From Nitrospiraceae bacterium (GTDB lineage: Bacteria; Nitrospirota; Nitrospiria; Nitrospirales; Nitrospiraceae): DNA of 64,000 nucleotides. Each line of letters opens with the position of its first letter. Position 1 is the first letter of the stretch. Location: contig JBBIJI010000016.1 in the NCBI GenBank assembly GCA_037446055.1, positions 1 to 64,000 on the forward strand, read 5' to 3'. The translations under genes and the position numbers were made by a program. Below, piece by piece: positions 39,330-60,177 of this stretch. Below the pieces are notes generated by a model, which worked only from the letters and a program-made list of their open reading frames with translations, made no database searches and had not been told where the DNA came from.

Positions 39330-39345
39330 CGGCACATGAGTTGCG
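39330..39345 (+). promoter_or_regulatory. candidate sigma-54 (-24/-12) promoter cGGCAC-N5-TTGCg
   Basis: Read directly: ggcacatgagttgc with GG-N10-GC spacing. It lies about 290 nt upstream of the multicopper oxidase start and immediately downstream of a sigma-54 activator gene. Confidence 0.5.
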
Positions 39346-39358
39346 GTTAGCCGAGGCC

Positions 39359-39434
39359 GCTGGTGAAGGTCTGGGTGATTTTGGACCGGCCTCCGAATGA
39401 CCCGCCCTCCGCAGCGGAGGGACCCTTCACCAGC
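39359..39434 (+). other. structured 5' leader: 11-bp perfect outer stem (GCTGGTGAAGG/CCTTCACCAGC) enclosing a 7-bp inner hairpin (CCCTCCG-cag-CGGAGGG)
   Basis: Read directly. It lies between the sigma-54 promoter and the upstream ORF/multicopper oxidase gene. Confidence 0.35.
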
Positions 39435-39472
39435 TCTTAATCTTTAATTAACTTAGGCAAGGGGAGAGACGC

Positions 39473-39550
39473 ATGGGCAAAAAGGCCGGACACGTTCCTC
39501 GCCTCAAGCCCCTCGCCTTGTGCCGCTACCCCAAGTTGCTGTTTCGGTAG
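39473..39550 (+). CDS. 25-codon upstream ORF (MGKKAGHVPRLKPLALCRYPKLLFR) with Shine-Dalgarno GGGGAG; candidate leader peptide or small protein
   Basis: ATG at 39473 preceded by aaggggagag with a 6-nt spacer. TAG stop at 39548-39550. Too short for the ORF track. Confidence 0.25.
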   Translation: MGKKAGHVPRLKPLALCRYPKLLFR

Positions 39551-39625
39551 GAGGCCGGGAACCACGGAGCAAGGCTGTTTACACGAACCGCGCGGACGCG
39601 GTCATTTCACACAAGGAGGCCAGTT

Positions 39626-42600
39626 ATGACGTCTTACTTCTATAACCCCAAGCGCAGGCGGTGTCGCGACCAGGCGATGTTCGGCCTGCAAGCTGCGGTG
39701 TTCGCGAGTAGCCTGCTCGCTGCACCGTGGCTTTTTGCGGCCGGGCCGGGAGATCAGTCCCATCAGGGACATGCGACTCCTGTCTCAATGCCGGGCTGGA
39801 CCCAAGCATTGAAGGGCCAGACGGTGGTGGAAAACGCCATCGAGGGCCGCGCGGGCAACGCGGAAAAGATGGAGATGCAGCACCATCGTTTAATGCAGAA
39901 GCTCGAGCAGCAGGCCCAGCAGGATGCCAGGGCCCAGCAGACATCGGGCGCCTTCAACAGTATGTCGATGATGCACCAATATATGGGCCAGGACGGCAGC
40001 AGCTTCCTGCTCATGACGGATGCGGCGAAGGGCGAACCGGTGTTGAGCACAGGCGGTCGTTGCCCGGCCAACGCACCGACCAAGCAGTACGATGTCTCGA
40101 TGATCAACGTCGAGATCACGCTGAACCGGTGGTTGGATTACTATCCCGGTTACATGTACGTGCTGACGGAGAACCTGGACAAGGTTCGAGCGGAGGAGGC
40201 GAAGAACAAAGCGGCACGAGAGAAGGAGGGGTTCGACCCCGGGGCGGTGAACACGGGATTGCAGGGCGATATGATTCAACCATTGGTCCTGCGCGCCAAC
40301 CAAGGCGATTGCGTCAAGATGACGCTCCGCAACCAGATGGAAGGCGAGGATGGGAGTCTGTTCATCCAGGCCTCCAGCATGATCGTGAGCGCGACGGGCA
40401 AGCCGGCGACGACAACCAATCCCGATTCGATCCTGGCGCCCGGCAAGTCGCAGGAATTCGAGTGGTATATCCACCCCCACATGCAGGAAGGGGTGCGGCA
40501 GTTCCATTCCTACAGCCATGACCGCGAGTTGACGGTGCTGGGATTGTTCGGAGCCTTCGTCATCGAGCCGAAGGGTTCCAGGTATCTCGACCCGTTGGGG
40601 ACCGGCCCGGCGCCTGAGGCGAAGAGCGGCTGGCAAGTGATGATTGATAACGGCTCGGGCCCGGATTTCCGCGAGCACGTGATTTTCTATCACGAGGTCG
40701 GGGACGAGGCGTTCCGGCCCCTGAACAAGAAGGGCGACTTCTTGCCCCAGCGCGATCCGCTTACGGACGCCTATCGTCCAGGCGGCCGCGCACTGAACTA
40801 CCGCAGTGAACCGTTCGGTATCGATCAGATGCATTTGCAGCACGAGTACTTCGGGTTCGAAGATGAATCCATGGCCTATAGCGCCTATACCTTCGGCGAT
40901 CCGCCGACGACGATTCCGCGCGGATATCTCGGTGACCCGACGAAGTGGCGTATTGTGCATGGCGGGTCGGAAGTGTTCCATTCCCACCATCCCCACAGCG
41001 GGTCCATCCGTTGGATCCGCAGCCCGCGCGCGGAACCGCAGGACTTCTGGGCCGCAGCAGCGGACGGGCCGATCAAGTACCCAGTGGTTCGTACCAAATC
41101 CGACCGGGTCGATGTGGAAGTCATCGGACCGTCTGAGGCGCTGGATCTCGAGGCCGAAGGCGGCGCCGGGCAGTCTCAGCATTTAGCCGGCGAGTTTCTG
41201 TTCCACTGCCACGTGGCGCACCACTATGTCGCGGGCATGTGGGGCTATGGCCGGGTGTATAACACGTTGCAAGTCGGCCCAGGCCACACCGACACGATGC
41301 CGGACCTCCGGGAGTTGCCGGACCGTCAAGGCCGCATCAAGATGGGCGTGACCTCCGATAAGCTCATCGGCACCACGGTGGACTGGTTCGGCAAGCAGTT
41401 CAAGATCGTGGCGCGCAACCAGAAGACCGATTGGAAAGCCAATCCGGCAGTCGTGAACATCAAGGATTGGGTCGAGATGTATCTGCCGGCGCAGGGCAAG
41501 CCTGGCCATACGGACGACGAAAAGGGCCAGATCATGTCCTATGACGCGACCGTGTGGGATTGGAAGTGGGATGGTGATGTCGCGAAAGGCGAGCGGGAGA
41601 GCACGGCCAAGTATCCGAAGTATCCCGCCGCGGCCAAGTGGGATGACAGCACCAGACCGAACATCCTGTTCGATCCGACAACAGGCAAGATGTCGTGGCC
41701 GCTCTTTAAACCGCACTTCGGCAAGCGGGTGCCGTTCTCGGCCAACCACAGCGGTGCGCCCTGGTTGGAGCCGATCCACCAAGACGAAAACGGCGAGCGG
41801 ACGAGCGAACCGGCGCGGCCTGGCGAAAACGGCCGTTGGAGCTTGTGTCCGGATAATGCCAACACGAAGTTCTACAACATCAAGTTCATCCGGCTTCCCA
41901 TCACCCTGGCCAAGAAGCAGGGGAAGGAACCGCCGATCGTGGACAAGGACGGTCTGATCTACGTCTTGGCCGAGGAAGAAAGGCTGGTTCGGGCCAACGA
42001 CGACCTGAAATATCCGCTCGTGCTCCGCGCGAACGTGTATGACTGCGTGGACTCGATCCTGACCAGCGAGTGGGACGACGACGACTTCACCAACTTTCAG
42101 GCGTCCAAGATCAACATCCATCCGCATTTCTTCCAGTTCGACACGGGGAACTCGGATGGGGTGATCTCGGGCTTTGAATACGAGATGTCGGTCCGGCCCT
42201 ATACCATGCACGAGAAGAAGAACAAGCATGGGTTGCCGGTGCCGATGAACTCCAAGCTGGTGGAGGCAGCGAAAGCCGGTGCGAAGTCGATCAAGATCAA
42301 GATGGCGACCGGTGCGACCAAGTATCACGTGAATACGGAGTTGCAAGTCGGCGCGGACTGCTTGGAGCCCAGCAAGGACACTACGACGTCCTTGAAGCGG
42401 GACGCGAGCTGCGCCGAAGTTGCACGGATCAAGGAAATCAGCGGCGACACGATCACGTTCCACAAGCCGCTGAAGCACAACCATCCGGTGGGCGATATCG
42501 TGACGCCGGAGTTCGTGCGCTATCGGTGGTGGGTGGACGTGGACATGGGGACCGTGTTCTGGCATGACCACGCGTTCGGCGCGACGACCTGGCCGCACGG

Positions 42601-44572
42601 CGGATTCGGCGTGACGATCGTGGAGCCCTACGGGTCGACCTATCATGATCCGAAGAACGGCAAGCTGGTCTGGAGCGGTCCGATCGCGGACATTCACAGC
42701 AGCGAGCCGATCGGCTATGGAGTCAGCGGCAGCTTCCGTGAGCTGATGGTGTCCATCCACGACACGGTGCCTCACACCGTGAACGTGATCCAGGCGGGTA
42801 ATCCGCCCGGACAGCCGGTCGAAGTGGCGCTGGAAGCCGGTAAGACGGTGTCGTTCCAGATGCCGGAAAAGATCCTCAATGCGCCGAATCAGTACATCAA
42901 CGGCGGGACGCATACGACGGGGAGCGGTCTCAACTTCAGAGCCGAACCCTTTGCGCAACGTCTCGCGAACAATCCCGATACGTCCAAGCTGTTCAGCAGC
43001 GCGATCCACGGAGATCCCGATACGCCCTTGCTTCGCGCGTATGTGGGTGACACCGTGGTGTTCCGCCTGTTGCACCAGCTCATGAACGAGTCCCACGTGT
43101 GGACGCTCTCCGGCCATACGTTCCTGACGGAACGGTTTGCGGGAGACGCCAATCGGAAGTACTCGATTCACGTCGGGATTGCCGAGCGGTATGACCTGGT
43201 GACCAAGGCCGGTGGATTCCAAGGCATGCCGGGCGACTACATCCACTTCAATGGCCGAAGCTCGCACTTCGCCGAGGGTGGGTGGGGTATCTTCCGTGTG
43301 CTGGGGAAGCACGCGGACGACCTGATGCATCTGCCGACCGGCACGAAGCCGGTGGAAATCCCGGCCGTGCCGTCGTCAGTGTGCCCGTCCGATGCTCCTG
43401 TGAAGAACTTCAACGTGGTGGCGATGGATCGCCCGATGAAGCTCAACGCGAAGGCGCCGGACGCGATCGAGGTGGACTTCGAGCGTAAGATCGAGATGAC
43501 CGTGCCTGAGGGCAAGATCTACGCACTCGAGGAGGAAGTGACCAAAGTGGCCGGCGAAGTGATGCCGAATCCGCTCACGCTGCGGGTCAACTTGGGTGAC
43601 TGCATCAAAGTAAACCTGAAGAATAAGATGAAGGCGAGCCGGGCGTCGTTCTTCGCGCCGGGCCTGGCCTTCGATCCGAAAGACAGCCTGGGCCTGAACG
43701 TCGGGAACAACCCCGGCGATCAGACGATCGCTCCAGGCGAAAGCCGGACCTACACCTACTACGCGCATCCTGCCAACAAGGAGACGACGTCGTTGGTGTG
43801 GGATGGTGGCAACATCGTGACGAATCCGCGCAATGGTCTGTACGGCGCGGTGATCGTCGGGCCTCGTGGGTCGCAGTATCGCGATCCGGTCACGGGCGCC
43901 GACATCTCGCAGAAGAACTCCTGGAGGGCTGACGTGATCGTCGATGCCAGCCTGCCGGAGAATGTCGGCAAGCGGAATTACCGGGATGTGGCCCTCTTCT
44001 TCCAGGACGAGGACAACATCATCGGAACCGCGTTCATGCCCTATGTGCAGAACGTCGCGGGGCTGACGGCGGTCAACTACCGATCGGAACCGTACAAGTT
44101 CCGCGAGGAGCAGGGGTGCTCGCTGGGCAAGATCTTCCAGCCCTGCGTCGTAGCTAAGCCGGAAGATCCGGTGACGCCGTTGATCGAGGCGCACGCCGGC
44201 GATCCGGTCCGTATCCACGTCATCGGCGCCAACAGCGAGCAAAACGGGATGTTCGGGATCGAGGGCCATGAATGGCCGATCGAGCCCTACATGCCAGGGG
44301 CCGACCAGATCAGCGTCGTGGAGTACGCCGGGTCCGAGACCCTGGATGTCTTCCTCCGCGGCGGTGCGGGCGGACCGTATCGTCAGGTGGGAGACTTCGT
44401 GTGGTCCAACACCCGGTTGCCCTACACGCAATCAGGTCAGTGGGGCTACCTCCGTGTGTTGCCGGTCGGCGACTCCCGGATTCAACCGCTCGGCGCTGCG
44501 GCAATGGGCGCCAAGCGTGCGGAGACTCTACCGGAGCCCCAGGCTATTCCGACGGCCATGAAGCAGGAATAG
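39626..44572 (+). CDS. giant multicopper oxidase-like protein (1648 aa, multiple cupredoxin domains; MofA/MnxG-class size)
   Basis: Shine-Dalgarno AAGGAGG 6 nt upstream. N-terminal RR-containing signal-like segment. Copper motifs HSHHPHSG (HxH), LFHCHVAHHYVAGMWGY (HCH...H...GM), HPHFFQFD and WHDHAFGATTWPHGGFG (HxH). Confidence 0.85.
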   Translation: MTSYFYNPKRRRCRDQAMFGLQAAVFASSLLAAPWLFAAGPGDQSHQGHATPVSMPGWTQALKGQTVVENAIEGRAGNAEKMEMQHHRLMQKLEQQAQQDARAQQTSGAFNSMSMMHQYMGQDGSSFLLMTDAAKGEPVLSTGGRCPANAPTKQYDVSMINVEITLNRWLDYYPGYMYVLTENLDKVRAEEAKNKAAREKEGFDPGAVNTGLQGDMIQPLVLRANQGDCVKMTLRNQMEGEDGSLFIQASSMIVSATGKPATTTNPDSILAPGKSQEFEWYIHPHMQEGVRQFHSYSHDRELTVLGLFGAFVIEPKGSRYLDPLGTGPAPEAKSGWQVMIDNGSGPDFREHVIFYHEVGDEAFRPLNKKGDFLPQRDPLTDAYRPGGRALNYRSEPFGIDQMHLQHEYFGFEDESMAYSAYTFGDPPTTIPRGYLGDPTKWRIVHGGSEVFHSHHPHSGSIRWIRSPRAEPQDFWAAAADGPIKYPVVRTKSDRVDVEVIGPSEALDLEAEGGAGQSQHLAGEFLFHCHVAHHYVAGMWGYGRVYNTLQVGPGHTDTMPDLRELPDRQGRIKMGVTSDKLIGTTVDWFGKQFKIVARNQKTDWKANPAVVNIKDWVEMYLPAQGKPGHTDDEKGQIMSYDATVWDWKWDGDVAKGERESTAKYPKYPAAAKWDDSTRPNILFDPTTGKMSWPLFKPHFGKRVPFSANHSGAPWLEPIHQDENGERTSEPARPGENGRWSLCPDNANTKFYNIKFIRLPITLAKKQGKEPPIVDKDGLIYVLAEEERLVRANDDLKYPLVLRANVYDCVDSILTSEWDDDDFTNFQASKINIHPHFFQFDTGNSDGVISGFEYEMSVRPYTMHEKKNKHGLPVPMNSKLVEAAKAGAKSIKIKMATGATKYHVNTELQVGADCLEPSKDTTTSLKRDASCAEVARIKEISGDTITFHKPLKHNHPVGDIVTPEFVRYRWWVDVDMGTVFWHDHAFGATTWPHGGFGVTIVEPYGSTYHDPKNGKLVWSGPIADIHSSEPIGYGVSGSFRELMVSIHDTVPHTVNVIQAGNPPGQPVEVALEAGKTVSFQMPEKILNAPNQYINGGTHTTGSGLNFRAEPFAQRLANNPDTSKLFSSAIHGDPDTPLLRAYVGDTVVFRLLHQLMNESHVWTLSGHTFLTERFAGDANRKYSIHVGIAERYDLVTKAGGFQGMPGDYIHFNGRSSHFAEGGWGIFRVLGKHADDLMHLPTGTKPVEIPAVPSSVCPSDAPVKNFNVVAMDRPMKLNAKAPDAIEVDFERKIEMTVPEGKIYALEEEVTKVAGEVMPNPLTLRVNLGDCIKVNLKNKMKASRASFFAPGLAFDPKDSLGLNVGNNPGDQTIAPGESRTYTYYAHPANKETTSLVWDGGNIVTNPRNGLYGAVIVGPRGSQYRDPVTGADISQKNSWRADVIVDASLPENVGKRNYRDVALFFQDEDNIIGTAFMPYVQNVAGLTAVNYRSEPYKFREEQGCSLGKIFQPCVVAKPEDPVTPLIEAHAGDPVRIHVIGANSEQNGMFGIEGHEWPIEPYMPGADQISVVEYAGSETLDVFLRGGAGGPYRQVGDFVWSNTRLPYTQSGQWGYLRVLPVGDSRIQPLGAAAMGAKRAETLPEPQAIPTAMKQE

Positions 44573-44650: not shown

Positions 44651-44695
44651 GGGGGGGGAGCTGCGCGCAATGTGTGGCTCCCCTGTCTTTTTTTA
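44651..44695 (+). terminator. rho-independent terminator after the multicopper oxidase gene
   Basis: Stem GGGGAGC/GCTCCCC with a 15-nt loop, followed by tgtcttttttt. Confidence 0.6.
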
Positions 44696-44713
44696 GAAGT
44701 TAGGAGTTTTTTT

Positions 44714-44790
44714 GAGTTATGAGTTATGAGTGTTGAGTGGGGGCACATGGAAGCTCAGAACCTTCAGCGCAGAACTCATAACTCAGAACT
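44714..44790. repeat. family-1 palindromic repeat element: gagttatgagttatgagtgttgagtgg ... cagaactcataactcagaact
   Basis: Read directly. The two arms are reverse complements built from GAGTTATGA/TCATAACTC units. Confidence 0.65.
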
Positions 44791-44808
44791 TTAGAAAAGG
44801 AGGCCGAA

Positions 44809-45738
44809 GTGAAACAAATCATGACAAAGGCCGTCGTCGCGGTGCTCGTAGCCGGCTGCCTCAGCGTCCCCGCCTACGCCTATGAAGAGGTGACGGTCAC
44901 CGATGGCGGGAGTATCTCCGGATCCGTCACGCTTGTAGGGGAGGTGCCGAAGCCCAAGGGGTACAACCTCACGACGCTGCCGGATGCCATCTATTGCGGA
45001 CGTATCTCTGACGGCAGGGGGTGGCGTCTGCTCCAGCCGTTCAATGTGGGTGAGCACGGAGAATTCCGCCAGGTCGTCGTGTTGCTCCAGGAAATCGAGA
45101 AGGGGAAACCGTTCGGCGCGTACAAGCCTCCTCGGATCGAGGCGCGGGATTGCCGCTTCATGCCGTTCGTGACCGTCGTTCGCGATCACCACGATGTCGT
45201 GGTCGTAAATATGGACCCGGCGATGCACGATATCCAGGCCTATGAAACCTCGCATCTGGGGCCTCGGGTCTTGTTCAACGTTCCGCTTCCCATCAGCCCG
45301 CGGTATCCCCACGAAGCCGGGCTCAGCGCGCACTTCCACAAGCATTACGAAGGCACGCCGATGAACCAAACGGTCAAGATGACCAAAGGCCGCGAGATTT
45401 TCACGATGCAGTGCGGGTTTCACGCGTACATGGAAAGCTGGGCGTTGGTCGTGGATCATCCCTACTACGCGATTACCGACCAAGACGGCCGGTTCGAGAT
45501 CGACGACATTCCGCCCGGCACATACAAGGTCACCATCTGGCATCCCTATGTGCGCGAAACGTACGAAGAGACTGTGATCATCAAGCCGAAAGAGGAGACG
45601 ACCGTCGGCTTCAAAGTCGCTGCTCCGACCGGCCGCCTTTATGCCAATCAAATGGTCGAGAACGCATACGTGCGCTACACGATTACGGAGGACGTTCAGT
45701 CCCAAATCATTCCGACGTTGGAGAAGCAGACGTTCTAG
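44809..45738 (+). CDS. secreted cupredoxin-like protein (amicyanin-type C-x2-H-x2-M site) fused to a C-terminal beta-sandwich domain (carboxypeptidase-regulatory-like)
   Basis: GTG start with AAGGAGG 5 nt upstream. Lipobox VAGC. Motifs HHDVVVVNMDP (candidate His ligand) and QCGFHAYM (Cys-x2-His-x2-Met). C-terminal motif DGRFEIDDIPPGTYKVTIWH. Paralogous to 59356-60177. Confidence 0.7.
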   Translation: MKQIMTKAVVAVLVAGCLSVPAYAYEEVTVTDGGSISGSVTLVGEVPKPKGYNLTTLPDAIYCGRISDGRGWRLLQPFNVGEHGEFRQVVVLLQEIEKGKPFGAYKPPRIEARDCRFMPFVTVVRDHHDVVVVNMDPAMHDIQAYETSHLGPRVLFNVPLPISPRYPHEAGLSAHFHKHYEGTPMNQTVKMTKGREIFTMQCGFHAYMESWALVVDHPYYAITDQDGRFEIDDIPPGTYKVTIWHPYVRETYEETVIIKPKEETTVGFKVAAPTGRLYANQMVENAYVRYTITEDVQSQIIPTLEKQTF

Positions 45739-45746
45739 TGGGCAAT

Positions 45747-45822
45747 AGTCATTCGTCATTAGTCATTGGCGGGGGTCATCGAATTCTTTCACCAATGACC
45801 ATTGACCCTTGACCAGTGACGA
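45747..45822. repeat. family-2 palindromic repeat element (GTCATTNGTCATT / CCAATGACCATTGAC units)
   Basis: Read directly: agtcattcgtcattagtcattgg ... caccaatgaccattgacccttgaccagtgacg. Confidence 0.65.
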
Positions 45823-45837: not shown

Positions 45838-46746
45838 GTGGCAGGACCGACACTACATGCCGGATTTGTAAGCCTGATGGCATGGAGCCTACTGTCCGCC
45901 GTCGCGCAGGCCGATCACCTCACGCCGAAACATGACCCCTGGGCGCAGCCCTGGGAGCTGGAGCGGTTGGCGTTGCTGGAGGTTCCCGATGACATGGTGT
46001 TCGTGCCGGCAGGATCGTTCTTGATGGGCAGCGATCCTCGGGTGGATCGCGCGGCTGGGCCGCAGGAACAACCGCAGCGATCGGTCGTGCTCGATGCTTT
46101 TGCCATCGACCGGTACGAGGTCACGAACGTTCACTATCTCCGGTTCGTGTTGGCCACAGGGGCCACGTGGCCGCCGTATTGGACGCAGGATCCCTTCCCG
46201 GAGAAGCAGTCGCGGCACCCGGTCATTGGGGTGAGTTGGGAGGAAGCGGATCGCTACTGCCGGTGGGTGGGGAAGCGTCTTCCGACCGAGGCGGAATGGG
46301 AAAAGGCGGCGCGAGGGGGCGATGGTCGCATCTTCCCCTGGGGCGACGAGCCGGCGGGGTGGATCAAGAGCAACATCGCCCATCCGGGGTCCAAACGAGG
46401 CGTGAAGTATCCCCCGTTGGCGAACGTCGACCGGTATGAGCGCGGCGTCAGCCCTTACGGGGTCTACCAGATGGCGGGCAACGTGAGCGAATGGGTCGCC
46501 GATTGGTTTGATCCTGAATATTACCGGAAAGGAGTCAACGAGAACCCGAGAGGGCCGGCCGACGGCGAAGACAAGGTCTTCAGGGGAGGGTCGTGGAACG
46601 AGGACCCGGAGGTGGCGCGATCGGCCGGGCGGAATGCGGCAGCGCCGGACCACAGGAGTTATCTGATCGGGTTCCGGTGCGCGAGATCAGTCATAAACGT
46701 CAATGGTCAATTGTCAATGGTCAACGGAGGCGGACAAAGTCATTAG
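45838..46746 (+). CDS. FGE-sulfatase fold protein, single-Cys PvdO/NirV-like subfamily, secreted (copy 1); C-terminal 19 aa encoded by family-2 repeat
   Basis: GTG start. Signal peptide ends in AQA. Motifs RGGSWNEDP and GFRCARS. The tail VINVNGQLSMVNGGGQSH is translated from the repeat gtcataaacgtcaatggtcaattgtcaatggtcaac. Confidence 0.8.
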   Translation: MAGPTLHAGFVSLMAWSLLSAVAQADHLTPKHDPWAQPWELERLALLEVPDDMVFVPAGSFLMGSDPRVDRAAGPQEQPQRSVVLDAFAIDRYEVTNVHYLRFVLATGATWPPYWTQDPFPEKQSRHPVIGVSWEEADRYCRWVGKRLPTEAEWEKAARGGDGRIFPWGDEPAGWIKSNIAHPGSKRGVKYPPLANVDRYERGVSPYGVYQMAGNVSEWVADWFDPEYYRKGVNENPRGPADGEDKVFRGGSWNEDPEVARSAGRNAAAPDHRSYLIGFRCARSVINVNGQLSMVNGGGQSH

Positions 46747-48510: not shown

Positions 48511-48672
48511 TCCCCATCATAGGCCGAATGGCCTATTCCCCTGCCTGACAAGAATCACATTGGATGCCGGAGGCAGTCAAGGCGCCTCTGCGAAAGATTG
48601 CGTAGGCTTGCGGCGCGTGTGGGCTGTCTCGATACATCGACAATTCGACACATCTTACAAAGGAGGAGCGTG

Positions 48673-49365: not shown

Positions 49366-49371
49366 TGGTAA

Positions 49372-53440: not shown

Positions 53441-54214
53441 TTGCAACCCAGGTTTCTTGAGTACGCGCTTGCAAAGTCTTGCGCAAGTCCACGAGGCAGG
53501 GGAGTGAGACCCAAGCATTGCCTCATTGAAGGCTGCGACAGTTGCGGTTTACGTAGCAAGGCTGTGCTGTGCAACCTCACCGGAGAAGATCTCGCCGGCT
53601 TCGAGAAAATCAAGCGCTCCCTGATGTACGAACCTCAGCAGACGGTCTTCTACGAGGGCCATGCCTGCCTGGGCTTGTACTTGCTCTGTGCCGGCAAGGT
53701 CAAGCTTACCCGCTCTTCGGTCCGCGGCCAGCGACAGATCGTGCGCATCCTAGAGAGCGGCGAACTGATCGAGAAGCACGCGTTTCGGGCCAAGGCCATC
53801 CACGAAGTCACCTGTGAGACCCTGGAACCATCCCAGATCTGCCTGATCGAAAAGGAGCCCTACATGGCGCTCATCCAGCGCAACCCTGGGCTGGCCTTGA
53901 GCGTGATCCAACTCCTAAGCAGTGAACTGGGCATGAATATGGACCAGCTCGACCAGTTCACCTTCAAGACCGCGCGCGAGCGCCTGGCGGGACTGCTCGT
54001 GGAACTGGGCGAACGATTCGGCAAGAAGGCGGACGGCGGGCTTCTCGTGGGAATCACGCTCAAACGCGAGGAGGTGGCTGAAATGGCGGGCATCACCGTC
54101 GAAACGGCCATTCGGCTCCTCAGCGCCTTTCGGGACGAAGGACTCGTCAACATAGACGGACGAGCGATCACCCTCCTCAAGCCGGATCGCCTGGCCCGCA
54201 TCGCACGGCACTAA
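53441..54214 (+). CDS. Crp/Fnr family transcriptional regulator with N-terminal Cys cluster
   Basis: cNMP-binding fold (FYEGHACLGLYLLCAGKVKL). C-terminal HTH (REEVAEMAGITVETAIRLLS). N-terminal CLIEGCDSCG...C cluster reminiscent of FNR. Start uncertain (TTG in the ORF track). Confidence 0.75.
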   Translation: MQPRFLEYALAKSCASPRGRGVRPKHCLIEGCDSCGLRSKAVLCNLTGEDLAGFEKIKRSLMYEPQQTVFYEGHACLGLYLLCAGKVKLTRSSVRGQRQIVRILESGELIEKHAFRAKAIHEVTCETLEPSQICLIEKEPYMALIQRNPGLALSVIQLLSSELGMNMDQLDQFTFKTARERLAGLLVELGERFGKKADGGLLVGITLKREEVAEMAGITVETAIRLLSAFRDEGLVNIDGRAITLLKPDRLARIARH

Positions 54215-54216
54215 TC

Positions 54217-54412
54217 TGATAGCGAATAGCGAACAGCCAGCAGCTAACAGCAAATAGCGAGCAGCGAATAGCTCCGAGCGGCGCCTCTTTCAGCAGAATC
54301 CCCCTTTCTTCCCTGTCTTGCCCGGCTTATACCACCTAACTCTTAGCTGTTCCTAGCATTTAGCTACTCGCTATTCGCTGACTTTCGGCTACGCGCCACC
54401 TGCTGCTCGCTG
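54217..54412. repeat. family-3 palindromic repeat element (arms 54217-54275 and 54343-54412)
   Basis: Read directly: gatagcgaatagcgaacagccagcagctaacagcaaatagcgagcagcgaatagc ... tagctactcgctattcgctg. Confidence 0.65.
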
Positions 54413-54577: not shown

Positions 54578-55105
54578 ATGATGAGGCGATCACGGCGCAC
54601 ACGTAAGGAAGCAGCAGTGGACCCCGTGGCCCTTCTGAAACGGGAACACGAGATGATCCTGGAACAGTTGCACATGATCGAGGCCACGATCGGACCGAAG
54701 AGCAAGAAAGGAGCTGCGCTGTTGGAGCCGGGTCGAAGCACGCTCTGCGAACTGTTCCGTTTTTTCACCGGACGAGTGGACGTGCACTACAAGCGGGAAG
54801 CGACGCTGATTTCCGCGCTCAGTCGCGTTGTTGGGCGTAAGAACGGAGAACGCGAACAATTCGAGGGCTTGCTCTGTGAGCATCGCGCACTGAAAGCGGA
54901 TGCGGCGAGCATTATGAAGCGACTTTCGAAACACACTGCAACCCCGTCCGTTGCCGACGGCGCCGATCGGTTGGGAATTCGGTCGTTCGTGAAGCGCTTC
55001 CGCAGTCATATTGCATGCGAGGAGCGCATTCTCTACGTGCTGGCCGGCATGCGACTGAACGCCGAGCAAAAACAGCGCGTCGGTCATCGCATGTTGCAGG
55101 TCTGA
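54578..55105 (+). CDS. hemerythrin-like (HHE cation-binding) domain protein
   Basis: Motifs LLKREHEMILEQL, HYKREATLI and ACEERILYV give the H...HxxxE...H...HxxxxD-type spacing of hemerythrin-like metal sites. The 5' end is probably shorter than the ORF track shows. Confidence 0.6.
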   Translation: MMRRSRRTRKEAAVDPVALLKREHEMILEQLHMIEATIGPKSKKGAALLEPGRSTLCELFRFFTGRVDVHYKREATLISALSRVVGRKNGEREQFEGLLCEHRALKADAASIMKRLSKHTATPSVADGADRLGIRSFVKRFRSHIACEERILYVLAGMRLNAEQKQRVGHRMLQV

Positions 55106-55109
55106 CAAT

Positions 55110-55202
55110 GCAGCGAATAGCGAACAGCCGGCAGCGAGTAGCAGGCAGCAGGCAGCTCAAATCGACAAGCTGCTAGCTACTCGCTACTCGCTATTGGCTA
55201 CC
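55110..55202. repeat. family-3 palindromic repeat element
   Basis: Read directly: gcagcgaatagcgaacagccggcagcgagtagcaggcagcaggcagc ... tagctactcgctactcgctattggcta. Confidence 0.7.
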
Positions 55203-55290
55203 TGAAGAGAAGAAGGGAGGTGAGCTGACGGCAACAGTGGTCCCAGGCACAGCCAGTAATCTGACAGCGAGCGTTTTGTAGAGAGGAGGA

Positions 55291-56499
55291 ATGATCATGA
55301 GAAGGACAAGAGGAATGGTCGTCGCGATGATGGCGCTCACCCTCTGCGCGTTTGCGGCGGGTGTCGCGTTTGCGGCCGACCCAGAAGTCAAGACGCACAA
55401 GCAACCCTATCCGGACCGATGGAACTCGATCAAAAACCCGCCGGTGAGCAAGTTCGGTTATCCACCTGATATCTGGGCCGCCGAGAACATGTCGTTCCGG
55501 GCGACCGGCAAGATCGTCGAATACTACCTGACGATCGAGCAGATCAAGTGGAACATCGTCGGCGACGTGTACGTGACGCAGTGGGCGTTCAACGGGCAGG
55601 TGCCCGGACCGCTCCTGACGGCGACCGAGGGCGACATCGTCCGCATTACGGTCAAGAACAACACGACCATTGACCACACCATTCACCCGCACGGGTTCTG
55701 GGTGCCGGTCAATATGGACGGCGTGCCGAACATCACCCAGTTGTCGATCCAACCGGGCGAGACGTTCGTGTATGAGTTCATGGCGAAGCCCTCAGGGCAC
55801 CATTTCTATCACTGCCACGTGAACGCGGCGACGCACATGGACATGGGACTCTATGGGTCCTTCGTCGTGTATCCGCCGGCTGAAGCGGCGAACGGGACGA
55901 ATGCGAACCAGGTGGCCGATCCTGCAGCCAGAATCGACCGGGACTACGTGATGATCCTGGACGAGGTGGACACGCGGATCGACGACGGCGAGAGCGGAGG
56001 CATGGAACTCGGCCATCCGAGGAAGATCGCCAACTTCAACTACTTCACGATCAACGGCAAATCCTTTCCCGAGACGCCGATGATCTTCGTGCGGGAAGGC
56101 GACATCGTGCGGGTCCGATTCCTGAATTTCGGTTACTGGTCCCATGCGATGCACCTGCACGGCCATGCGTTTGCGCAAGCCAGTGCCGAGTGCGATCGCT
56201 GTCCGAAATACTGGGAGTTCAGGGACGCGATGAACCTGAACGCCGCGCAACGAACCGACATCGTCTTTAAGGCCAACAATCCCGGCCGGTGGGTGTTCCA
56301 CTGCCACCGGGTGCCCCACGCGACGAATGACGGAGCCTATCCGGGCGGACTCCTGACGATCATCGAGTACGAGAACAACCCGTACCTGCCGGTGATTCCG
56401 CAGTTGCCGTTGCCGGGGTTCAAGCACATGGACGATCCGAAGACCATGAACATGTCGCTGTCGCATAAGGCGATCAAGAAGCAGCTCGCGGGCGAATAG
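55291..56499 (+). CDS. two-domain multicopper oxidase (secreted)
   Basis: Shine-Dalgarno GAGAGGAGGA. Signal peptide ends in AFA-AD. Domain 1 motifs HTIHPHG and HHFYHCHVNAATHMDMG. Domain 2 motifs MHLHGHAF and WVFHCHRVPHATNDG. No NirK-specific signatures. Confidence 0.8.
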   Translation: MIMRRTRGMVVAMMALTLCAFAAGVAFAADPEVKTHKQPYPDRWNSIKNPPVSKFGYPPDIWAAENMSFRATGKIVEYYLTIEQIKWNIVGDVYVTQWAFNGQVPGPLLTATEGDIVRITVKNNTTIDHTIHPHGFWVPVNMDGVPNITQLSIQPGETFVYEFMAKPSGHHFYHCHVNAATHMDMGLYGSFVVYPPAEAANGTNANQVADPAARIDRDYVMILDEVDTRIDDGESGGMELGHPRKIANFNYFTINGKSFPETPMIFVREGDIVRVRFLNFGYWSHAMHLHGHAFAQASAECDRCPKYWEFRDAMNLNAAQRTDIVFKANNPGRWVFHCHRVPHATNDGAYPGGLLTIIEYENNPYLPVIPQLPLPGFKHMDDPKTMNMSLSHKAIKKQLAGE

Positions 56500-56576: not shown

Positions 56577-56903
56577 ATGAAAATGTCACGGTTGTTACTG
56601 GTCGCGATCTCCTGGACGATCCTGTTTGGTGGCGTGGCATTCGCTGATCGCGTGGTCCATTCCGGGAATGTCACCAAGATCAACAAGGACTCCGGGGCGG
56701 TCGAGATCGAGTTACGGAACGGGGGAACGAAGGCATTTACGGTGACGGACAAAGACATTCTGGCCAGTCCCGTGTGGAAAAAGCGGCTCAACGTCGGCGA
56801 CGGCGTGGACATCACGGCCGACGGCGACAAGGTCATCACGGTGCTTCGCCGGAATCTGCCGGTCACGATCCGGCCTGCGGAGACCGCAGCGGCTCCTAAA
56901 TAG
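56577..56903 (+). CDS. small secreted protein (108 aa), tandem paralogue A
   Basis: Signal peptide ends in AFA-DR. Mature region is more than 90% identical to the product of 57040-57372. Confidence 0.55.
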   Translation: MKMSRLLLVAISWTILFGGVAFADRVVHSGNVTKINKDSGAVEIELRNGGTKAFTVTDKDILASPVWKKRLNVGDGVDITADGDKVITVLRRNLPVTIRPAETAAAPK

Positions 56904-57039
56904 GGAGGTCAAGAGACGGGAACGGGAAGTTCGGAATGAGTCCGGACTTCCGCTCACCTCAAGCCAAAGTCAGTTTCCTAATCCTGCCCGACCGTCTAGT
57001 AGATCAAGCGGAAGATCGTACCGAGGGGGAGGTAGAAGC

Positions 57040-57372
57040 ATGCTGATGAAGCCTTCGAAAGTGTTACTGCTCGTGATCTTAGGTGTGATTCTATCCGGCG
57101 GAATAGCCTTGGCCGGCGATCGCGTGGTCCATTCCGGGAACGTCACCAAGATCGACAAGGATTCCGGGGCAGTCGAGATCGAGTTGCGGAACGGGGGAAC
57201 GAAGGCATTTACAGTGACGGACAAAGACATTCTGGCCAGTCCCGTGTGGAAAAAGCGGCTCAACGTCGGCGACGGCGTGGACATCACGGCCGACGGCGAC
57301 AAGGTGATCACGGTGCTCCGCCGGAATTTGCCGGTGACGATCCGACCCCCGGAGGCGCCGGCGGCGAAATGA
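57040..57372 (+). CDS. small secreted protein (110 aa), tandem paralogue B
   Basis: Mature part is near-identical (DRVVHSGNVTKIxKDSGAVEIELRNGGTKAFTVTDKDILASPVWKKRLNVGDGVDITADGDKVITVLRRNLPVTIRP). Confidence 0.55.
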   Translation: MLMKPSKVLLLVILGVILSGGIALAGDRVVHSGNVTKIDKDSGAVEIELRNGGTKAFTVTDKDILASPVWKKRLNVGDGVDITADGDKVITVLRRNLPVTIRPPEAPAAK

Positions 57373-57677
57373 ACGAGCTACGACTGGAAGACGAGAAGCT
57401 GATAGGTGACTAGAAGCCTGGCAGCCCTCTTTTCCTCCTTGCACGGACGGAGACGAATCGGCGTTCTGACGGAGAATTTGTTTGGTGCCGTTTGGAGCAG
57501 CGGAGAGACACCTGCTGATGCGAAACGCCGCAGTGCAATAGGGAAGTTGGGAAAAAAGATCGCTGAATTGTGAATGTGAGTAAAGGCATCACTTCTGCCA
57601 GACCACATGGAAGGCGCGGTCATCACCGGGTAGTGCGTGTGAGTCCGAAATTGAAAATGGAAAAAGGGGGGATGGCG

Positions 57678-57986
57678 ATGAAAAACATCATGCCGGTTTT
57701 ATTCATCATGCTGGTCAGCGGCTCATTGACCATGGCCATGGCCGAGACGAAAGCGGAACGAGCGAAGGGCGCGCCCGTCAAGATCGTGCAAGGGACGCTG
57801 AAAGAAGTCGATGTGAAGGGCAAGACTGCAACGGTCGAAATCGTTCAAGGTCAAGCGGTGAAGCTAAAGCTATCTGAGGAAGCTGCAGACCAATTGGACC
57901 GAGTCGGCAAGAAGGCCGAGCGCGTCGAACTCCGGTTGTCGGCCGATGATGTCGTGCAGACGGTGGCGGTAGGGACCGGGCCATGA
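57678..57986 (+). CDS. small secreted hypothetical protein (102 aa)
   Basis: Shine-Dalgarno AAAGGGGGG. Signal peptide ends in AMA-ET. Lys/Val-rich beta-type sequence. Confidence 0.4.
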   Translation: MKNIMPVLFIMLVSGSLTMAMAETKAERAKGAPVKIVQGTLKEVDVKGKTATVEIVQGQAVKLKLSEEAADQLDRVGKKAERVELRLSADDVVQTVAVGTGP

Positions 57987-58009
57987 CCAGGATCGTGGGG
58001 TTGTGAAAC

Positions 58010-58408
58010 GTGAAGGACCACATGATCCGGGGTGTGCTGTGCGGTGCGGTCTTGTCGCTGATGCTGGATGGCTTTGCTGGCTCTGCCGTCTGGGCCGAGA
58101 CGATCACGGTCTCCATGAAGGGCCGGGGCTTTCATCCGGGACGAATCGAAGTGGAGGTGGGAGACACCGTTCAGTGGATCAACGACGATACGGAGCTCCA
58201 CGAAGTGGTGAGCGGGAAGTCGCCGTTCGACCGGGAGACAGGAGTTCCCTTGAATTCCGGCACTCTCATGTGGGACCAGCGATACACGTTCACCTTTAGG
58301 AAACCGGGGACGTATCCGTATATGTGCGTCATTCATCGATCGCTCAGCGACGTGACGGGTGAACTGGGGATGGTGGGAGAAATCGTCGTGCGTGGAGAAC
58401 AACCATGA
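58010..58408 (+). CDS. blue copper protein (plastocyanin/azurin-family cupredoxin) 1
   Basis: Motifs VGDTVQWINDD..HEV (His ligand) and GTYPYMCVIHRS...GM (Cys, His, Met ligands). Confidence 0.75.
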   Translation: MKDHMIRGVLCGAVLSLMLDGFAGSAVWAETITVSMKGRGFHPGRIEVEVGDTVQWINDDTELHEVVSGKSPFDRETGVPLNSGTLMWDQRYTFTFRKPGTYPYMCVIHRSLSDVTGELGMVGEIVVRGEQP

Positions 58409-58791
58409 CTAACTTGATGAGAGTGGCACTGGCGGGTGCCATGGCCATTTTTCTACTGGTGGCATATGCAGCGGAGCGGTCTGAAGCCGGCACTGTGAAA
58501 GTATCCATGAAGGATCGGCAGTTCACCCCCGACGTGCTCAAGGTGAAGGTGGGCGATACGGTCGAGTGGGTCAATGACGATCAAGACGTCCACCAGGTGA
58601 TCAGCGGGAAAGATCTCAGTGATCCGAACCTCGCGAAACCGCTGGATGGGGGGACGTTGCTGCCGGGTCAGTACTATCTTTACAAGTTTGAGAAGCCTGG
58701 AACGTATCCCTATATGTGCGTCATCCACTGGTCGCTGCAGTCGATTTCAGGAAAGGGCGGCATGCTCGGGGAGGTGATCGTTGAACCCTAA
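58405..58791 (+). CDS. blue copper protein (plastocyanin/azurin-family cupredoxin) 2
   Basis: ATGA overlap with the previous gene. Motifs VGDTVEWVNDDQDVHQV and GTYPYMCVIHWS...GM. Confidence 0.75.
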   Translation: MTNLMRVALAGAMAIFLLVAYAAERSEAGTVKVSMKDRQFTPDVLKVKVGDTVEWVNDDQDVHQVISGKDLSDPNLAKPLDGGTLLPGQYYLYKFEKPGTYPYMCVIHWSLQSISGKGGMLGEVIVEP

Positions 58792-59287
58792 CAATGGTCA
58801 TAAAGTTCGGAGAGCCCGCACGAGCGCGCACCGGCTGGTGGCTGTCGTGGTGGGAGCGATCCTGGCAATAAGCGTGACAGGGGGGCTCGTTCAGGCTGCT
58901 GAGCCGTCTGCAGGTTCGGAGAGCAAGAAAGGACCTTCCAGTGACTCATCGGTCGGTCAGCGGGCAGGCTTCGATATTTTTTTGATGGGGATCGTGACCA
59001 AGACCAACTACGAGGCGGCCCCGATCAGCATCACGATGAAGGTGATCGAGGGGGCGATGGAGCGGCTGGGACAAAACATAGAGGTGATCATCGAGACGGA
59101 TGAGGCGATCAAGCATTTCAAGAGAAGGGTGAGGGTGGGACAGGAGTTGGACACGCGCGTGCGGGTGGGCACCGACGGCAAGTTTTACATGGTGACGTCG
59201 CAACGTCGCGGCATCCCCTCGCGGGAGTTCAAGGGCGGGCCGACGATCGACGAGAGTGTGAAGAAGTTGCTGGAGTCCGGAGGATAG
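58781..59287 (+). CDS. secreted hypothetical protein
   Basis: Hydrophobic signal-like segment VAVVVGAILAISV. Start codon uncertain (TTG in the ORF track). Confidence 0.4.
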   Translation: MNPNNGHKVRRARTSAHRLVAVVVGAILAISVTGGLVQAAEPSAGSESKKGPSSDSSVGQRAGFDIFLMGIVTKTNYEAAPISITMKVIEGAMERLGQNIEVIIETDEAIKHFKRRVRVGQELDTRVRVGTDGKFYMVTSQRRGIPSREFKGGPTIDESVKKLLESGG

Positions 59288-59355
59288 GATCGTTCAGAAG
59301 TGTTCAGGGTGCAGTAGAACCGATGAAGGGTTTTTTAACCTAAGGAGGGTGTGCG

Positions 59356-60177
59356 ATGAACAAGTGGGGACTGATCGGCGTATGTGGGATAGCGACAGCA
59401 GCCTGGCTTTCCGCCGGGGTGGCAGAGAGTTTTGCTGCCGGGACCATAAGCGGGACAGTGACATTCGCGGGTAATGCGCCTGCGAACCCGAAAATTCGCA
59501 TCGCGAAGAACGCGGACTATTGCGGGACCGAGATCGAATTACCGGTCCTGGTGGTGAATCCGAAGAACAAGGGCGTCCAGTGGACGGTCGTCTATCTGGA
59601 AGGCGCCACCGGCGGGCCGACGCAGGAGAAATATGATTTGGAGATGGGCGATCCCAAGAAGAAGTGCGACTTCGTGCAGCATGTCGTCGCGATGGTCAAG
59701 AACAAAAACATTTCAATGAAGAACACCGATCCGATTCTGCACAATCCGCACACCTTCAACGATAAACACGCAACGCAGTTCAACGTCGCGCTCTCGGAAA
59801 AGGGTCAGGTGATTGAGCGGAAGTTGCGCGCGGGCGGACTCAATAAACTCCAATGCGACTCCCATGTGCATATGAACGGCTATGTGTATACGTTCGACCA
59901 TGGGTATTTTGCCGTCACCGACGGGGATGGCAACTTCAAGATCGGCGATGTTCCTCCGGGCAAGTACAAGGTCGTTGCCTGGCACGAGAGCTGGAAAGCG
60001 AAGAACATGGAGGATGTGACTCGCTCGATCAAGGAAGCGGAAGAGAAGATCAAAGCAGGCCATATCAAGCCGGAAGATGCCCAACTTGAGCGTCCGAACT
60101 ACGAAGACCACATCGTGCTGACCAAGGAGATCGAGGTGAAAGACGGCGAGGTCAAGGTCGCGTTTGAACTGAAATAA
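59356..60177 (+). CDS. secreted cupredoxin-like protein (C-x2-H-x2-M site) with C-terminal beta-sandwich domain; paralogue of 44809-45738
   Basis: Shine-Dalgarno TAAGGAGGG. Signal peptide ends in AAG-TI. Motifs QCDSHVHM and DGNFKIGDVPPGKYKVVAWH. Shares the N-terminal TxSGxVT motif with the paralogue. Confidence 0.7.
   Translation: MNKWGLIGVCGIATAAWLSAGVAESFAAGTISGTVTFAGNAPANPKIRIAKNADYCGTEIELPVLVVNPKNKGVQWTVVYLEGATGGPTQEKYDLEMGDPKKKCDFVQHVVAMVKNKNISMKNTDPILHNPHTFNDKHATQFNVALSEKGQVIERKLRAGGLNKLQCDSHVHMNGYVYTFDHGYFAVTDGDGNFKIGDVPPGKYKVVAWHESWKAKNMEDVTRSIKEAEEKIKAGHIKPEDAQLERPNYEDHIVLTKEIEVKDGEVKVAFELK

Follow-up and report, generated by a model that had tools for sequence, protein, structure and literature searches.

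Nitrospira and Nitrospina perform most of the nitrite oxidation on Earth. Since 2013, a large multicopper oxidase (MCO) of these bacteria has been discussed as a putative manganese oxidase or an enzyme of defence against reactive oxygen species (ROS) (PMC3578206; PMC9477243). Lücker and colleagues described it in 2013 as a periplasmic, MnxG-like MCO, highly conserved in Nitrospina gracilis and Candidatus N. defluvii, and proposed ROS defence or manganese oxidation as its function (PMC3578206). In metaproteomes from the Pacific, only nitrite oxidoreductase (NXR) exceeds 'MnxG' in abundance among the oxidoreductases of Nitrospinae, and the abundance of this 'MnxG' rises as oxygen falls and tracks that of catalase or NxrA (PMC9477243). 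Here we analyse the locus of this oxidase in 64,000 nucleotides from a Nitrospiraceae bacterium (positions 1 to 64,000 of contig JBBIJI010000016.1, assembly GCA_037446055.1; the whole stretch is called the window below). The 1648-residue MCO of the window is the putative 'MnxG' of the Nitrospina and Nitrospira literature. That literature treats the oxidase alone, and we found in it no description of the sigma-54 cascade, the terminator, the CupCPD partner or the cysteine-less pair of proteins with the fold of formylglycine-generating enzyme (FGE).

The copper-protein block of the window consists of at least two modules and several transcription units. Module A (37.1-49.4 kb), with the large MCO, is a core locus of Nitrospira, and module B (53.4-60.2 kb), with a two-domain MCO (2dMCO), is rare. 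We read them as two adjacent periplasmic copper-oxidase modules native to Nitrospira, in which the large MCO is most likely fed by Mn(II) and related to stress; our confidence in this reading is about even. An initial annotation had seen one coherent, accessory 21-kb system here and had recognised no named system in its combination of components. Likely genes were picked by the GC pattern of reading frames and the length of open reading frames (ORFs) and then scanned against Pfam and NCBIfam, with 55 ORFs of the window chosen for the Pfam scan. These scans and searches of the PDB recovered the gene classes listed in that annotation at the coordinates it had given. The view of the combination as unrecognised does not hold for the large MCO, which has been known as a putative manganese oxidase since 2013 (PMC3578206; PMC9477243). 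New here are the conserved promoters and the sigma-54 cascade with its cysteine-cluster activator, the build of CupCPD and its recurrent pairing with MCOs, and the FGE-fold companions without catalytic cysteines. Module A contains the following features:

37056-37071, + strand: sigma-54 element P1, TGGCATATGCCTTGCT, with one mismatch to the consensus
37112-37510, + strand: single-domain response regulator (Pfam Response_reg, 85 bits)
37561-39003, + strand: sigma-54 enhancer-binding protein (EBP) without a receiver domain (Pfam Sigma54_activat, 240 bits; HTH_8)
39330-39345, + strand: sigma-54 element P2, CGGCACATGAGTTGCG
39626-44572, + strand: 1648-residue six-domain MCO of the MnxG family (PDB 9bxa, E=1.1e-84)
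44654-44684, + strand: intrinsic terminator 3' of the MCO gene (14-bp stem with 8 GC pairs, T7 tail)
44809-45738, + strand: CupCPD309, a secreted blue-copper-type protein of 309 residues (Pfam CarboxypepD_reg; AlphaFold model)
45838-46746, + strand: secreted FGE-fold protein 1 (Pfam FGE-sulfatase, 210 bits)
46869-47852, + strand: FGE-fold protein 2 (Pfam FGE-sulfatase, 203 bits)
47876-48406, + strand: cysteine-rich protein of 176 residues without a signal peptide (no Pfam, NCBIfam or PDB match)
48598-49365, + strand: probable small outer-membrane beta-barrel (Pfam OMP_b-brl, E=4.8e-5, below cutoff)

The best solved relative of the large MCO is MnxG of the Bacillus Mnx complex (9bxa_A), to which it aligns in six stretches covering domains 1-2 and 4-6. 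Pfam searches with excised segments returned alternating Cu-oxidase_3-like and Cu-oxidase_2-like domains, which give a six-domain layout with insertions, and the protein has a signal peptide. Four histidine-rich motifs are conserved among 117 homologues: HxxHxH at residues 452-457 and HCHxxxHxxxxM at 527-538 are present in all of them, HPH at 832-834 in 109 and HDH at 980-982 in 116. A further HPH at 283-285 is not conserved. From the four motifs, which make up a complete set of copper ligands, the type-1 copper is predicted to sit in domain 2 and the trinuclear cluster between this domain and domain 3, and the same arrangement of copper sites has been reported for bacterial six-domain MCOs (PMC3600357). 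Because the large MCO is a true MnxG homologue, Mn(II), one of the substrates proposed at the outset, is a reasonable candidate.

Relatives of the large MCO were found in at least 582 species in a survey of one genome per species, and the 80 best species loci all belong to Nitrospira or Nitrospirales. The protein shares 91% identity with the 'putative manganese oxidase' of Nitrospira tepida and 70-89% with proteins of N. defluvii (84% for the orthologue at locus L040), N. bockiana, N. neomarina and many metagenome-assembled Nitrospira. Synteny was counted by tblastn of all window proteins against the 80 loci, and counts of downstream genes were limited to the 44 loci with at least 9 kb 3' of the MCO. 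CupCPD lies 3' of the MCO in 40 of these 44, as does at least one FGE-fold gene; 30 loci have two or more, with FGE-fold protein 1 in 35 and FGE-fold protein 2 in 32. The barrel protein follows in 17 of the 44 and the cysteine-rich protein in 16. The initial annotation had proposed conservation of the gene neighbourhood as a check, and the outcome is divided: the MCO, CupCPD and FGE-fold genes are co-located in 40 of 44 loci, and the genes for Crp (8/44), radical SAM (5/44), hemerythrin (5/44) and ODP (2/44) are sporadic, with the 2dMCO 3' of the large MCO in none. On the 5' side, the EBP gene directly precedes the MCO in 34 of 58 loci; the response regulator gene is found upstream of the MCO in 33 of 56 loci and a histidine kinase gene in 23 of 46 species loci.

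The half of the block with the MCO, CupCPD and FGE-fold genes thus belongs to the core of the genus and is no accessory island, because its synteny is kept in most Nitrospira loci. A horizontally acquired island was considered for module A and rejected: the GC content is flat at 0.57-0.62 throughout the window, the only tRNA of the window is at 17005, 20 kb from the block and at neither of its borders, the ORFs in and around the block that were scanned against Pfam include no integrase, and the synteny is genus-wide. A patchy distribution is seen only for module B. Module A has been expanded in some Nitrospira lineages. Two copies of the giant MCO, up to 3-4 CupCPD genes and 4-6 FGE-fold genes per 25-kb stretch occur in several Nitrospira genomes (loci L025, L032, L033, L037, L043, L077, L078, L084 and others), and in N. 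neomarina (L003) the MCO gene is present as a tandem pair. In two N. tepida-like contigs (L001 and L002), which encode exactly the MCO of N. tepida, the EBP and MCO genes are approximately 4.3 kb apart (5159-9411). The insert between them contains AhpC/thioredoxin-like and DsrE genes, a Y1 (IS200-type) transposase and a LuxR-type two-component pair, and the sigma-54 element 5' of the MCO is kept despite it.

The element P2 (CGGCAC-N5-TTGCG) is located 296 nt 5' of the start codon of the large MCO and begins at position 39330, which is also where the initial annotation had begun its block. An nGGCAy-N5-TTGCk element is found approximately 190-480 nt 5' of the MCO (with one at -60 and one at -620) in about 70 of the 76 loci scanned. 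P1 precedes the gene pair of the response regulator and EBP, and its equivalent is present 52-107 nt 5' of the response regulator gene in 28 of 32 loci. Matches of the sigma-54 type are no commoner in the window than expected by chance (27 found, 24.7 expected), so it is conservation across loci that carries the case for both promoters, which have GG at -24, GC at -12, canonical spacing and an adjoining EBP gene. The conserved P1 before the response regulator and EBP and the conserved P2 before the MCO point to a two-step sigma-54 cascade that probably governs the large MCO. P1 would drive the single-domain response regulator and the EBP, and the EBP would then open P2, from which a leader of approximately 270 nt and a single MCO gene ending in its own terminator would be transcribed. 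The dedicated sigma-54 activator of the initial annotation is thereby borne out as the EBP at 37561-39003.

The N-terminal sensor of the EBP retains C85, C96, C99, C115 and C122 in 34-37 of 37 sequences (36 orthologues and the protein of the window), which points to a putative Fe-S or metal site. Expression may thus be gated by a redox, oxygen or metal signal through this cysteine cluster. A candidate for the top of the regulatory cascade is encoded further upstream:

33494-34897, + strand: NtrC-type sigma-54 activator with a receiver domain (Pfam Response_reg, Sigma54_activat and HTH_8)
34936-36840, + strand: PAS-PAS histidine kinase (two Pfam PAS domains, HisKA and HATPase_c)

The gene order around this activator is also found in the N. 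tepida-like loci L001 and L002. A third sigma-54 EBP, at 27975-29405, brings the number of such genes, with those at 33494-34897 and 37561-39003, to three in 11 kb, and two of the three are of the NtrC type with receiver domains and adjoining histidine kinases. The promoters of mnxG and mcoA in Pseudomonas putida have predicted sites for sigma-54 and IHF and require manganese, the proposed sensor kinases MnxS1/S2 and MnxR (PMC11930936); by analogy, they offer a precedent for sigma-54 control here.

In 26 of 77 loci, a strong hairpin followed by a run of at least five T is found approximately 60-120 nt 3' of the MCO, for the most part at 66-70 nt. Because the intrinsic terminator of the window is directly 3' of the gene, the large MCO is probably transcribed mainly alone. 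No known riboswitch was found in the leader of approximately 270 nt, since Rfam at gathering thresholds gave no match in 33-64 kb. A leader peptide, for which a 25-codon ORF at 39473-39551 had been considered, was dropped on finding it conserved in 0 of 74 loci. No further sigma-54 promoter was found 5' of CupCPD309 or the 2dMCO, and a search of the relevant promoters for FNR boxes gave no convincing site.

CupCPD, the most constant partner of the large MCO together with the FGE-fold genes, is annotated throughout its family solely as 'hypothetical' or 'carboxypeptidase regulatory-like'. Both paralogues of the window have a C-x2-H-x2-M motif and a CarboxypepD_reg domain. No cupredoxin was detected in them at the level of sequence by Pfam on the excised insert, by a profile search of the PDB or by hhalign with the plastocyanin-like proteins nearby as targets. 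Among 1.84 billion representatives, a profile search recovered 270 CupCPD clusters at E<1e-30, a number that grew to 6257 at E<1e-10. The AlphaFold model of CupCPD309 calculated from a deep alignment has a predicted local distance difference test (pLDDT) score of 87.7, and superseded a first model from a shallow alignment, with a pLDDT of 56. The best PDB matches of the model in Foldseek were all cupredoxins, at a probability of 1.0: 4hcf, auracyanin, amicyanin, plastocyanin and the Nitrosopumilus protein 5fc9. Ten residues (C63, C115, N134, D136, H140, C202, H205, M208, W244 and H245) are nearly invariant among 50 diverse members, and four of them, H140, C202, H205 and M208, are at least 90% conserved. 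CupCPD is therefore modelled as a cupredoxin fold with the His, Cys, His and Met ligand set of a type-1 site, and is predicted to bind copper. In the model, a CarboxypepD_reg/transthyretin-like sandwich is interrupted by the cupredoxin between strands 1 and 2. Since the first strand of the sandwich comes before the cupredoxin and the remainder after it, the cupredoxin is an insertion in the sandwich. The two paralogues had been called cupredoxin fusions in the initial annotation, and the model supports the cupredoxin fold.

In Nitrospira and Nitrospinota, CupCPD genes are found beside MCOs of two unrelated architectures. The six-domain MCO of Nitrospira is followed by CupCPD; in the window and two related contigs, a CupCPD gene is the last of the 2dMCO operon; and a Nitrospinota locus (L086) has a pair of CupCPD genes 3' of its 2dMCO. 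Fusions with a plastocyanin domain or with TPR repeats also occur in the family. In an unrelated metagenome contig (L095, 1-7732), two CupCPD genes flank two bd-like oxidase genes and genes for mono- and dihaem cytochromes c, which suggests that the family is a general periplasmic electron carrier of such respiratory clusters. The cluster of NXR and bd-like genes in Kuenenia, Nitrospira and Nitrospina has been described to contain 'two cupredoxin-like proteins' and an MCO gene (PMC3578206). The layout of the metagenome contig matches that cluster, and by this analogy we infer that the published cupredoxin-like proteins may be members of CupCPD.

These contexts bear on an explanation in which no manganese is involved. 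CupCPD and the plastocyanin-like proteins would carry electrons from NXR or cytochrome c to the oxidases, which would act as periplasmic terminal oxidases that pump no protons, a copper-only sink that would rid a microaerophile without a canonical haem-copper oxidase of oxygen or surplus reductant. We consider this unlikely, though it is in keeping with the layout shared by the metagenome contig and the NXR cluster, the MCO gene in that cluster, the presence of a CupCPD of its own for each MCO, and the co-variation of the Nitrospinae MnxG with NxrA in low-oxygen water (r=0.64; PMC9477243). However, by established bioenergetics, oxygen reduction and nitrite oxidation that are both periplasmic generate no proton-motive force, so such a branch would be dissipative. 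Furthermore, the part scanned at 20-64 kb contains no nxr, cytochrome c or bd-like genes except for a cytochrome c at 21084-21509, and the identity of CupCPD with the published cupredoxin-like proteins is drawn from layout and not from sequence. We also speculate, with rather low expectation, that electron transport in Nitrospira and Nitrospina, the NXR of which is periplasmic, has a branch made of copper proteins only, in which CupCPD would link cytochrome c and bd-like modules to MCOs. Instead of oxidising manganese, 'MnxG' would then be a periplasmic oxygen reductase fed by proteins, and a sigma-54 redox cascade would switch it on at low oxygen.

The other constant companions of the large MCO have the FGE fold, as the initial annotation had said. 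All three FGE-fold proteins of the window match Pfam PF03781 at 200-210 bits and the structures of human and bacterial FGE at E values of approximately 1e-36. They lack both of the catalytic, Cu(I)-binding cysteines of the C-terminal loop, where Glu, Asp or a gap is aligned, and their only conserved cysteines are C141 and that of a C-terminal FRCA. Because both catalytic cysteines are missing, the proteins are not formylglycine-generating enzymes, and they resemble non-catalytic members of the fold. A true FGE or anaerobic sulfatase-maturase logic, to which the FGE fold together with radical SAM/SPASM had pointed, was rejected for want of a sulfatase, for the missing catalytic cysteines and because linkage of the radical SAM gene is rare.

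The genes and their homologies, the synteny, the copper ligands, both promoters with the terminator, and the cupredoxin fold of CupCPD are shown by the analysis. On this basis a mechanism for module A can be proposed, in which we infer the substrate, the direction of electron flow and the signal. The exported oxidase would reduce oxygen to water with electrons taken singly, most likely from Mn(II), by homology with MnxG. The Mn(III/IV) product would serve the control of oxidative stress rather than energy gain, as proposed by Lücker and colleagues (PMC3578206). CupCPD and the two FGE-fold proteins would be separately transcribed helpers, and CupCPD, like the plastocyanin-like proteins of module B, may pass electrons to or from the type-1 site of the oxidase.

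Several observations weigh against Mn(II) oxidation with these helpers. We know of no private, dedicated cupredoxin partner among the features of known manganese oxidases, and such a partner points to electron transfer from protein to protein. The best family match of the large MCO, the NCBIfam model of MnxG (NF041487), scores 121 bits against an equivalog cutoff of 3100, so the protein appears to be a distant member of the MnxG family and not an equivalog. No genes like those for MnxE or MnxF were seen adjoining the MCO, although this is a weak test because MnxE and MnxF were not used as queries; no small ORF 5' of the MCO is conserved, and the small proteins adjoining it had no PDB match. 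With the terminator 3' of the MCO, co-expression of the MCO, CupCPD and FGE-fold genes stays an assumption. Among MCOs, homology is a poor predictor of manganese oxidation, and for those of Nitrospira and Nitrospina the activity is unconfirmed and unmeasured (PMC9477243; bioRxiv 10.1101/2024.12.25.630300). Lastly, the large MCO resembles cuprous oxidases in an N-terminal extension rich in Met and His, like Cu(I)-binding segments.

This extension is conserved (QHHRLM, MSMMHQYM; 14.6% Met and His against 6.3% overall) and is the first of the features that would fit a function in copper handling. The large MCO would then be a cuprous oxidase with a role like that of CueO or PcoA, and the small secreted, cupredoxin-like and FGE-fold proteins would be periplasmic copper buffers or insertion factors that serve the cell's many copper enzymes. 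A CopD-family gene is found 3' in the N. tepida-like locus, a SCO1/SenC gene follows the Nitrospinota version of module B, Cu(I) could be what the activator senses through its cysteine cluster, and an FGE-fold protein beside a copper enzyme recalls nirK-nirV. Nevertheless, we regard this function as improbable. The 55 ORFs scanned against Pfam include neither a CopA ATPase nor CusCBA, and no CopC or CusF was found among the window ORFs scanned. The architecture is the six-domain one of MnxG and not the three-domain one of CueO. Identities of 70-91% over 1650 residues throughout the genus, together with the abundant homologue in Nitrospinae, suggest a central role and not one in stress only. 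An identity of the CueO/PcoA type was accordingly discarded for the protein itself, which has six domains instead of three, reaches 22.6 bits with the copper_res_A model against a cutoff of 479, and has no cop or cus genes beside it among the ORFs scanned. The initial description of an extracytoplasmic copper-oxidase system that is not a cop/cus cassette agrees with these results.

Module B and the genes that flank it are made up as follows:

52182-53087, - strand: FGE-fold protein 3 (FGE301), divergent from Crp (Pfam FGE-sulfatase, 200 bits)
53441-54214, + strand: Crp/Fnr regulator with an N-terminal cysteine cluster (Pfam cNMP_binding and HTH_Crp_2)
54578-55105, + strand: hemerythrin-domain protein (Pfam Hemerythrin, 47.5 bits)
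55291-56499, + strand: 2dMCO of 402 residues (Pfam Cu-oxidase_3, 110 bits; Cu-oxidase_2, 107 bits)
56577-57372, + strand: tandem-duplicate small secreted proteins of 108 and 110 residues (read from the sequence)
57570-57986, + strand: small secreted protein, an ORF of 138 residues with the true start probably internal (read from the sequence)
58010-58408 and 58405-58791, + strand: two overlapping plastocyanin/amicyanin-like proteins of 132 and 128 residues (Pfam Copper-bind and Cupredoxin_1)
58781-59287, + strand: small secreted protein of 168 residues (read from the sequence)
59356-60177, + strand: CupCPD273, the second CupCPD, a paralogue of 273 residues that is 32% identical to CupCPD309
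60477-63941, + strand: four genes 3' of module B, for a hypothetical protein, a membrane protein, a radical SAM protein of the Radical_SAM_C type and a TPR protein (Pfam)

The synteny of the entire run is preserved in L091, a metagenome contig of 141 kb, and in a second contig (L085), in the order FGE301 (on the opposite strand), Crp, hemerythrin, 2dMCO, small proteins, two plastocyanin-like proteins, small protein, CupCPD273 and four more genes ending in TPR. Copies of FGE-fold protein 3 that are 74-79% identical adjoin Crp in both contigs, and the 168-residue secreted protein (82-84% identical) and CupCPD273 (81%, in the same position) are likewise present in both. The four genes 3' of CupCPD273 are in the same order in L091, and TPR proteins also follow the Nitrospinota module, a reduced form that consists of a 2dMCO, two CupCPD, a copper-binding protein, TPR proteins and SCO1/SenC. 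Close relatives of the 2dMCO are few, only about 13 at 57% identity or above, with one at 91%, one at 75% and approximately ten at 57-64%, including Nitrospinota. Module B is therefore a real but rare unit that can exist without module A. Four of its small proteins carry N-termini like those of signal peptides. The tandem duplication is recent: a 248-nt direct repeat (56646-56893 and 57118-57365) is 93% identical between its copies, and L091 has two copies and L085 one. Module B may follow the same logic as module A on a smaller scale, with Fnr/Crp and hemerythrin as sensors, the 2dMCO as oxidase, and plastocyanin-like carriers, CupCPD and small secreted proteins as its partners.

The 2dMCO has two cupredoxin domains, HxH and HCH copper motifs and homology to solved two-domain MCOs, the closest being 3g5w (E=1.4e-52) and 2zwn (E=5.6e-52); the best solved relatives include a metagenomic two-domain laccase. 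The entry 3g5w was deposited as 'Multicopper oxidase type 1', and we take it to be the two-domain MCO of Nitrosomonas europaea. HCH is found in both domains of the 2dMCO (around residues 172 and 335), as in 63 of the 120 relatives listed, so that a second type-1 copper site is possible. Two-domain MCOs of the N. europaea type are encoded with nirK in ammonia oxidisers, and this relationship raises the question of whether module B acts on nitrogen oxides, with the 2dMCO turning over NO, hydroxylamine or nitrite under the control of NO- or oxygen-responsive Fnr/Crp, hemerythrin and ODP proteins. The genes for these three regulators are directly 5' of the 2dMCO, and those for Crp and hemerythrin stay syntenic with it. 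Such a function is nonetheless doubtful. The protein itself is not NirK, an identity that was rejected at 88 bits with TIGR02376 against a cutoff of 296, module B contains no nirK, nor or cytochrome genes, no clear FNR box is found upstream, and the Nitrospinota version is without these regulators.

Between the modules, in addition to the third FGE-fold gene, are two genes:

49733-50839, + strand: radical SAM/SPASM protein, AhbD/NirJ-like (Pfam Radical_SAM and SPASM)
51084-51902, - strand: diiron protein of the ODP family with a metallo-beta-lactamase fold (Pfam ODP, 214 bits)

These three genes are not conserved partners of the large MCO, and the ODP protein is a sporadic neighbour. The radical SAM protein had been called a maturase in the initial annotation; its Radical_SAM and SPASM domains are present, and its scores place it closest to the haem-modifying AhbD/NirJ group and not to peptide maturases, although below every curated cutoff (AhbD, 425 bits against 500; TIGR04053, 373 against 395; NirJ2, 308 against 500). 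Because it is below all cutoffs and rarely linked to the MCO, it is probably not part of the system. The outer-membrane barrel of module A is probable, with a C-terminus of ...GITF, and its score of 24 bits is below the OMP_b-brl cutoff of 28.7.

A last reading takes the accessory island of the initial annotation as one horizontally acquired 21-kb island that works as a whole, with the radical SAM/SPASM and FGE-fold proteins maturing its copper proteins. Most of the genes are indeed clustered on the same strand, and radical SAM, Crp and hemerythrin genes partly co-occur with the MCO in a few genomes (L056, L058). Against this, the composition is native, no tRNA is found at the borders and no integrase among the ORFs scanned, and the core is syntenic throughout the genus, which largely refutes the reading. 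The radical SAM gene is found in only 5 of 44 loci and is AhbD/NirJ-like, the FGE-fold proteins have no catalytic cysteines, a terminator follows the MCO, two genes are on the opposite strand, and module B occurs without module A in Nitrospinota. We therefore consider it very improbable that these genes form a single acquired island; with sporadic radical SAM, ODP, Crp and hemerythrin neighbours and the 2dMCO operon as a separate rare module, the claim of one coherent system was abandoned.

Elsewhere in the window, a Cupredoxin_1-domain protein of 195 residues is encoded at 12144-12731, 25 kb upstream, where it adjoins a squalene/phytoene synthase gene. An ORF with a restriction endonuclease domain of the DpnII/MboI type is located at 30370-31617 on the - strand, between the two upstream sets of regulators. 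Short tandem repeats of heptamers (AGCGAAC, AGCGAAT, AGCGAGC, TGAGTTA and similar) fill the spacers between the genes of the cluster and recall the STRR heptamer repeats of cyanobacteria. They were found at 44700-44800, 48364-48513, 49368-49498, 50824-50888, 54215-54282, 55106-55205 and 60189-60228, and also at 45746-45820 and 46781-46850. The arrays are often trailed by their own reverse complements, and long hairpins were predicted in four of the six spacers tested (z from -3.8 to -5.2). The first 36 kb of the window contain only two arrays of period 7.

The locus provides defined proteins for co-expression, a promoter for reporter assays, and oxygen, manganese and copper as candidate signals, and thereby makes the open question of the enzyme directly testable. 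With Mn(II) as the substrate, nitrite oxidisers would link nitrogen cycling to manganese cycling in sand filters and oxygen-minimum zones. Should the cupredoxin supply the electrons, these organisms would have a new copper branch in their respiratory chain.

Among the known systems, the Mnx complex of Bacillus sp. PL-12, in which MnxG is associated with MnxE and MnxF, contains a homologous six-domain MCO with the same placement of copper, and the HCH...M and HxxHxH motifs align. The large MCO of the window is approximately 420 residues longer, with the Met/His-rich N-terminal extension and large insertions, and its neighbours are CupCPD and FGE-fold genes, with no MnxE/F genes seen. The Bacillus complex belongs to the spore coat, whereas the large MCO is a periplasmic protein of a Gram-negative nitrite oxidiser and its manganese activity is putative. 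In Pseudomonas putida GB-1, MnxG and McoA are likewise large MCOs of the MnxG type expressed from a predicted promoter of the sigma-54 type (PMC11930936). Compared with the MnxR pathway of that organism, the activator here has a cysteine-cluster sensor instead of a receiver domain and is itself behind a second sigma-54 promoter. The P. putida MnxG also differs in its downstream partners. The NCBIfam model built on MCOs of this type gives the best family match of the large MCO, but the score (121 against a cutoff of 3100) sets the two apart.

The two-domain MCO of N. europaea (3g5w) is the closest solved relative of the 2dMCO and shares with it the two cupredoxin domains and the type-1 site in domain 1. 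Its domain 2 has HDH in place of the HCH of the window protein, and its gene is found with nirK and cytochromes, whereas the 2dMCO gene is beside CupCPD and plastocyanin-like genes. The nirK-nirV pair of denitrifiers likewise combines a secreted protein of the FGE-sulfatase fold with a copper enzyme made of cupredoxin domains. In Nitrospira there are at least two FGE-fold paralogues, and their neighbour is an MCO and not NirK; NirV beside NirK is their nearest analogy. The model of CupCPD, finally, has the same fold as the single-domain cupredoxins amicyanin, plastocyanin, the Cupredoxin_1 protein 4hcf and the Nitrosopumilus protein 5fc9 over approximately 110-145 aligned columns, and its His...Cys-x2-His-x2-Met ligand spacing matches that of amicyanin. 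In contrast to these proteins, CupCPD has no match to any cupredoxin family at the level of sequence, carries an extra conserved pair of cysteines, and embeds its cupredoxin in a sandwich.

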